A stretch of 2,860 nucleotides of DNA from Escherichia coli (GTDB lineage: Bacteria > Pseudomonadota > Gammaproteobacteria > Enterobacterales > Enterobacteriaceae), in assembly GCF_003334785.1 (NCBI RefSeq), contig NZ_QOWV01000055.1. One strand, written 5' to 3'. Within the stretch, counting starts at the first letter, position 1. Each line of letters opens with the position of its first letter. Shown here piece after piece: positions 1 to 865 of the stretch. Made by a program: the position numbers and the translations under genes. The notes beneath the pieces are model-generated. The model was not told where the DNA came from and did not search any database. It saw only the letters and a list, made by a program, of their open reading frames with translations.

Positions 1-865
1 TGAATCAGGAGAGCAGATTACCCCCTGGATCTGATTTCAGGCGTTGGGTGTGGATCACTATTGCACCGTTCGTGACAACAAAAGGGGTAAGCTGAAATCG
101 TTTATGGATTACATCGACATATGCCTGGCAGAGAATGTCCGGAATGACGAGGTTATCTTTGCGGAGATTAAGGCAATGGTATACGGGCCGACGTTCCATG
201 CCGCGTTACTACATTCAGCCCGGACGTAAAATGCGCCCGTCAAAAAGAACGGTTCGCTTCGAAACTCAGCCAGGATACCACCTCTCCGCCACACCCGGGA
301 AGAAGTTGATATGGTGGTTGCCGGACAACAGCGCTCCTGGATTGACTGCTGCATCACTCAACCACGCTGAATATCAAAGGAGAGCGTTACCGGTTAAAAG
401 AGAAACGTAAAGCTGTGGTGATGACCCAAAACGCAACGCCTGTCAGTGAGGATGAAATGGTGAAAAGCGGACAGCATCAGTAACGGAAGTATCTTAGCGG
501 GTACGAAAATGGCAGGATCGTGACATTGACAGAATATCTCCTGATCATCCTGAATGACTGCAGTTGCTGTAGAAAAGTAAGCTGTCTCCACCCACGGCAC
601 CACTTAACAGGCATTCCGTAACTTCCCCCAGACTTACTATGACGCATTATCGGTGCACTGAAAACGGGAGAGTGCGCTTAAAACCGCAGACCGCATGCGG
701 GTGTTACTGCATGACAGTCTGGCCGTATTGTGAGATGTCGGCAGGAACCGATGTCCGCGCAGGGGGGAACTTCCTGCAGTACCTGACGCTTCAAATGGTA
801 TTAACCGTAGGGTGTTGTTGGTTCCGGATCGCGGAAATGGGAGCACAGGTCTGCTACGGGGTGTA

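Follow-up and report, generated by a model that had tools for sequence, protein, structure and literature searches.

The window analysed here is a stretch of 2,860 bases of Escherichia coli DNA, and the feature under study occupies its left 531 bases. Chromosomal loci of many E. coli genomes match the whole window at 100% identity, and in a megablast search of complete genomes a match covering at least 80% of it was found in 1948 of 5426. The annotated context was taken from the PGAP/RefSeq records of strain L37 (locus L001) and strain PK8241 (locus L002). In L001, the genes lying to the left of the window are istB and then istA of a complete IS100, both on the minus strand. The features in and directly around the window are as follows, in window coordinates unless stated otherwise.

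1-77, minus strand: left end of a complete 1954-bp IS100 (IS21 family), comprising the terminal repeat and the istA leader, and continuing leftward
about 77-50, minus strand: IS100 terminal inverted repeat with the L1 repeat
about 49-22, minus strand: IS100 L2 repeat
-9 (IS nt 87), minus strand: ATG of IS100 istA, 9 bases left of the window
78-82, no strand: right copy of the 5-bp target-site duplication ACAAA, from the empty-site comparison
L001 4119-4123, outside the window: left copy of the 5-bp target-site duplication ACAAA
77-331: PGAP pseudogene 'IS21 family transposase', frameshifted and incomplete (L001/L002 annotation)
78-329, plus strand: istA (transposase) fragment, IS21 nt 250-501, IstA aa 50-134
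78-179, frame 2: IstA aa 50-84, NKRGKLKSFMDYIDICLAENVRNDEVIFAEIKAMVY against HKMVKLKPFMDYIDMRLAENVWNSEVIFAEIKAMGY (tblastn)
180-284, frame 3: IstA aa 85-119, 31/35 identical, 89% (tblastn)
about 290-331, frame 2: IstA aa about 121-134, a weaker match (tblastn)
326-329, no strand: internal deletion junction CAAC, joining IS21 nt 501 to nt 1914
328-483, plus strand: 3' end of istB (helper AAA+ ATPase), its last 51 codons, IstB aa 215-265
346-483: PGAP pseudogene, partial 'AAA family ATPase' (L001/L002 annotation)
484-531, plus strand: non-coding right end with the right terminal inverted repeat, ending ...ATCGTGACATTGACA, with TTGACA ending at 531
1614-2765, plus strand: hypothetical protein of 383 aa (RefSeq annotation)
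from 2849: start of a frameshifted YeeP-like GTPase pseudogene (RefSeq annotation)

The first 77 bases are IS100. It occupies L001 4124-6077 (1954 bp), and its two minus-strand genes are istA (4969-5991), annotated 'IS21-like element IS100 family transposase', and istB (4190-4972), annotated 'IS100kyp family helper ATPase IstB'. By blastn, further IS100 copies in L004 and L005 share window 1-77 at 100% identity. Read in the IS orientation, the terminus is 5'-TGTCACGAACGG..., which corresponds to ...GTGACA at window 72-77; the left end starts TGTCACGAACGGTGCAATAGTGATCCAC..., and the other end reads TGTCAACGACGGATGAAAAGTGATCCAC.... The two termini have the form TG...CA and are imperfect inverted repeats of each other (TGTCACGAACGG...GTGATCCAC and TGTCAACGACGG...GTGATCCAC), with a second GATCCA-containing repeat about 25 bp inward at either end.

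An uninterrupted version of the locus is present on plasmid pARG01 (L005), which carries the island segment without IS100 and with a single ACAAA. This plasmid aligns at 100% to L001 3118-4123 and to L001 6078-6177, and the two alignments overlap by 5 bases; therefore, the inserted element is exactly L001 4124-6077, flanked by a duplication of ACAAA. The duplication and the empty site are thus observed directly. All three features of an IS100 left end were found, namely a full-length element with IstA and IstB, TG...CA termini bearing the repeats, and the 5-bp duplication with its empty site. Compared with the known IS100 of Yersinia pestis and E. coli (istA-istB, 1954 bp), the window end is identical, with the same termini, IstA-binding-type repeat motifs and 5-bp duplication; there is no difference, and the window holds just the terminal 77 bp. 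IS21-family insertions are bounded by 5-bp direct repeats, and their ends contain multiple L1/L2 and R1/R2 repeats and a reactive terminal CA (PMC10122671). The IS100 copy here matches this published architecture.

The identity of the left end bears directly on how the leftmost reading frame is to be understood. The initial annotation had proposed a possible decayed pseudogene remnant together with the 3' end of an upstream gene, the latter represented by a frame 3 that is open from base 3 at the left edge to a TGA at 93-95 (...NQESRLPPGSDFRRWVWITIAPFVTTKGVS*). The frame is present as described, and it is the one observation in favour of a host gene that enters from the left, stops at 93-95 and is followed by unrelated frameshifted pseudogene pieces. 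In the full contig, however, where a continuation upstream of position 1 had been proposed as a check, the frame is closed by a stop at window -9 to -7, leaving 33 codons that contain no ATG, GTG or TTG start. Bases 1-77 are the non-coding left end of IS100, whose genes run leftward on the opposite strand, and bases 78-95 belong to the istA relic, so that the frame runs from one side of a transposition junction to the other. NCBIfam gave no match for the peptide, and PGAP calls no gene over this stretch. The host-gene reading, whose probability is practically nil, is already refuted by the empty-site comparison and the closure of the frame in the full contig. Since 1-77 is the IS100 left end with its genes on the opposite strand, the frame-3 "gene" is an accidental opening, the antisense of the IS100 leader running over the junction into the relic.

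To the right of the junction, the istA fragment at 78-329 was aligned to the reference IS21 of the IncP-1 plasmid pBS228 (L003 1252-3382, 2131 bp), giving 87.0% identity over 254 columns (blastn E = 7e-86). With IS21 IstA as the query, tblastn returns E = 3e-18 and 5e-14 and covers IstA aa 50-134 in the three segments given above. Aligned base by base, the fragment has lost 2 bp after 179 and gained single bases near 285 and near 289, and it is therefore frameshifted at two indel sites. The repaired istA peptide is recognised by the NCBIfam model transpos_IS21 (E = 1.2e-5), and the repaired istB fragment by the IstB model PRK09183 (E = 2.3e-6), at profile positions 226-252 of 253, that is, at its C-terminus. 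These repaired peptides (45-70 aa) score 25 and 27 bits against NCBIfam whole-protein cut-offs of 160 and 300, as is expected for fragments. Since the scores are far below the cut-offs, it is chiefly the BLAST alignments that support the family assignment. Where the locus is uninterrupted, the match to IS21 starts at nt ~218, corresponding to IstA aa ~41 (PEPPARKT...); thus, the relic has neither the left terminal repeat nor the beginning of istA.

The istB part follows directly. Window 326-514 matches IS21 nt 1914-2102 at 171/189 positions (90.5% DNA identity, blastn E = 8e-73), and tblastn with IS21 IstB aligns 328-480 in frame 1 with 42 of 51 residues identical (E = 4e-27). The fragment contains an in-frame TGA at 343-345 and still ends at its native TAA, 481-483. 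The blastn segments share 4 bases, 326-329, and both the identity of the pieces and their breakpoints can be read directly from the alignments: 1412 bp are missing, from istA codon ~134 to istB codon ~215. When the two breakpoints of IS21 are aligned side by side, GGCAAC is found at both, which suggests that the deletion may have arisen between short direct repeats in a microhomology-mediated manner.

BLAST homology ends at 514, and this position was considered as the end of the relic; it was rejected because a gapped alignment carries the terminal repeat to 531. The relic there reads ...GGCA-GG-ATCGTGACATTGACA against ...GGCAAATAACGGTCAAACATCGTGGCGTTGACA in IS21, and its right end is 12 bp shorter, with two 6-bp gaps relative to IS21. 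The reverse complement, TGTCAATGTCACGAT, matches the IS21 right inverted repeat, TGTCAACGCCACGAT, at 13 of 15 positions. Accordingly, the span of 1-483 originally proposed for the feature was right as to the feature itself and too short on the right side, where it extends to 531. Segment 78-531 carries IstA and IstB homology of the IS21 family, but it lacks one of the two terminal repeats and has no intact istA or istB frame; since the left terminal repeat is absent, it is a remnant rather than an element. Having a single end and intact versions of neither the transposase nor the helper ATPase, the relic cannot transpose.

These alignments also account for the remaining protein-like stretches. 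The frame-2 peptide at 104-229 (MDYIDICLAENVRNDEVIFAEIKAMVYGPTFHAALLHSART) and the small ORF from ATG 421 to TAA 481-483 (MTQNATPVSEDEMVKSGQHQ) both exist as first described, and 370-520 is indeed purine-rich (66% A+G vs 54% in the whole window). The former is IstA aa 59-84 followed by out-of-frame read-through, and the latter corresponds to the final 20 codons of istB, encoding the C-terminal tail, with ATG 421 at the position where IS21 has the Leu codon of AGVLTKN. The high purine content is that of the Lys/Glu/Arg-rich IstB C-terminus, as in IS21 itself. As ORFs, these stretches are no more than chance, whereas their homology is far above it: the 2860-base window contains 49 ORFs of at least 20 codons, and such short ORFs therefore carry no weight of their own. 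The earlier proposal of frameshifted pseudogene fragments was thus correct, the fragments being the istA piece at 78-329 with its indels and the istB 3' end at 328-483 with its TGA, in agreement with PGAP, and the 3' end of an upstream gene has to be dropped. For annotation, the value of the result is that all the protein-like stretches are explained and a false "upstream gene" is removed.

Among the matches listed, the closest named relative of the relic is IS21 (IS8) of the IncP-1 alpha plasmids (R68.45/pBS228), the prototype of the family. The relic is colinear with IS21 nt 250-501 and 1914-2131, and its right terminal repeat is homologous to that of IS21; the DNA is 87-90% identical, and the proteins share 82% of residues in the IstB tail and 89% over aa 85-119, where IstA is best preserved. 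Unlike IS21, the relic is without a left end, ~1.4 kb of interior and 12 bp of the right end, and it bears frameshifts and a nonsense codon. At ~88% DNA identity, the parent of the relic is a sister element of IS21, not IS21 itself. Among the matches listed in the plasmid and E. coli collections, there is no intact copy of the parent and no intact element closer than about 90%; the parent was matched to no named element, and the best intact relative among the matches listed is IS21, at 87-90%. The possibility that the relic is a decayed copy of the adjacent IS100 was tried and rejected, as blastn gave no match at E <= 1e-3 with a word size of 7. IS100 and IS21 share short, weak matches only.

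A second IS21 relic of a similar form is found on IncF (FIB/FII) plasmids, by the aerobactin/RepFIB region. It likewise has the 5' part of istA fused to the 3' end of istB and the right end. However, it is 99% identical to true IS21, its breakpoints lie at L003 1676/3216 vs 1752/3165 in the window relic, and it keeps more of the 5' side, with IS21 homology from L003 1300 vs 1469. The different breakpoints and the 99% identity to true IS21 rule out that the two are the same deletion, and the IncF-plasmid relic arose independently, with a similar result. An example lies at 3800-4342 of the Salmonella plasmid pFORC79_2 (L007), between the RepFIB repB and the aerobactin iuc genes, and the same arrangement occurs on many other IncF plasmids. 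In a distant search of plasmids, 1503 records had a best match of 90-95%, and those listed are the IncF-plasmid relic.

The existence of two such internal-deletion derivatives, one of them widespread on IncF plasmids, together with the apparently good preservation of the right terminal repeat, raises the question of whether the window relic is a non-autonomous, MITE-like miniature of an IS21-type element that is still mobilisable in trans by an IS21-like transposase. Such mobility seems extremely improbable. The left end is absent, with homology starting at IS21 nt ~218 inside istA, whereas IstA requires paired, complete terminal repeats (PMC10122671), and the matches inspected share one genomic context instead of being scattered.

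Taken together, window 1-531 is almost certainly inert nested insertion-sequence debris with no cellular function, as far as sequence comparison can tell, and nothing in the data contradicts this reading. We infer the following order of events. An IS21-like element with ~88% DNA identity to IS21 would have inserted into a CP4-type island of E. coli and subsequently decayed, with loss of the left end together with ~40 codons from the start of istA. A further 1412 bp was lost, probably through a deletion that ran from one copy of a short repeat (CAAC/GGCAAC) to another, and the two frameshifting indel sites in istA and the nonsense codon in istB would have been acquired during the same decay, so that the right terminal repeat alone survives, ending at 531. 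Later, in one lineage, an intact IS100 transposed into the istA remnant and duplicated ACAAA. The distribution is the basis for placing IS100 last: of 5426 complete E. coli genomes, 1087 carry the relic over >=80% of its length, but 399 have the exact IS100/relic junction of the window, so that IS100 is the later, lineage-specific insertion.

The conservation of the relic could also be read as a sign of use. In that case, the fragments would have been co-opted as a small protein (the 20-codon ORF or the 41-codon frame-2 ORF), a regulatory RNA or a promoter for the downstream island genes, in line with the relic being kept at >=99% identity in more than 1000 genomes and with its right terminal repeat ending in a perfect TTGACA hexamer. 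In tandem IS21 junctions, the TTGACA hexamer acts as a -35 element. However, the high identity reflects recent common descent of the island rather than selection, other lineages show the relic freely interrupted by various ISs, each at its own point, and no downstream gene begins within 1 kb. The scans for RNA, promoter and translation signals were null as well. Rfam gave no family at E <= 1 on either strand of the whole window. Promoter-like sites were not enriched (2 found vs 3.4 expected), with none convincing in 1-600 and no good -10 after the TTGACA at the relic end; the weak GTGACA-17-GATCAT site at 520-548 is at chance level. No Shine-Dalgarno-like sequence directly before ATG 421 was seen on reading the sequence. 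We therefore regard co-option as very unlikely, and the reading as inert nested debris is retained.

The locus carries little biological weight; it represents a textbook "IS graveyard" within an island acquired horizontally. The IS100 end and the IS21-like relic are already annotated by PGAP, and only the exact boundary map is new. With the boundaries fixed (IS100 end at 77, target duplication at 78-82, relic end at 531), they could serve as lineage markers.

Other insertions were observed in the same relic. In E. coli ZH193 (L008 625-2491), an IS100 lies in the same orientation ~100 bp further right (~window 175-181), with its own 5-bp duplication, CAATG (~window 175-179); this copy has a ~70-bp internal deletion. 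The ZH193 allele of the relic keeps the 2 bases that are deleted after window 179. Plasmid pZ0117EC0013-3 (L004) has the same right junction as the ZH193 IS100. In E. coli O145 RM12275-C1, the relic is bordered at ~window 128/129 (L009 ~2500) by an IS66-family element with tnpA, tnpB and a truncated transposase, which replaces everything to the left of ~window 129, with a cobalamin-biosynthesis pseudogene and an IS4-family fragment nearby.

Two independent IS100 insertions from different E. coli lineages, which share their orientation, lie ~100 bp from each other and have separate duplications (ACAAA and CAATG), are the basis for asking whether the IS21-like relic is a preferred landing pad for IS21-family transposition. 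If IS21-like DNA were targeted, e.g. via recognition by IstA or IstB, a modest new target preference would follow. We consider this unlikely; the alternative is a simple tolerance of insertions in dead DNA.

The window is located in a CP4-like genomic island of E. coli. Upstream of IS100 in L001 are AlpA-type and inovirus-Gp2-family genes, typical of CP4-like islands. Beyond the GTPase, dynamin-family, RdcB-family and patatin-like phospholipase genes follow in one orientation (L001 9938-14303), and this set may be an accessory module of the island. In the O145 strain, the same block adjoins the cobalamin-biosynthesis pseudogene; this neighbour and the IS4-family fragment place the island at a cobU-side (CP4-44-type) locus in that strain. 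An identity of the relic with the yoeD/yoeG/yoeH pseudogenes was also considered. It was ruled out because the left region of CP4-44 in K-12 MG1655 (2,062,000-2,072,000) gave no blastn match to the window at E <= 1e-5.

Several minor observations concern the flanks. A RefSeq 50-aa 'hypothetical protein' at L001 3999-4151, on the minus strand, crosses the right-end junction of IS100, which begins at L001 4124, and is in all likelihood an annotation artefact created by that insertion. Between the right end of the relic and the 383-aa ORF, ~1.07 kb (window 532-1600) contains no annotated gene in the RefSeq records and no Rfam match. This interval is A+T-rich by eye at ~1000-1450, and it has a promoter-like site at 959-986 (10/12) and terminator-like hairpins at 1283-1300 and 1537-1557.

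The 383-aa ORF itself (window 1614-2765, plus strand; WP_000514100.1) is 100% conserved in many E. coli genomes and directly precedes the YeeP-like GTPase. Searches of Pfam, NCBIfam, PHROGs and PADLOC gave no match, and it is an orphan island protein. Another terminator-like hairpin follows it at 2805-2829. Its layout comprises a Cys-rich N-terminus, a Pro/Thr/Asn-rich low-complexity linker at aa ~90-180 and a basic helical C-terminus.
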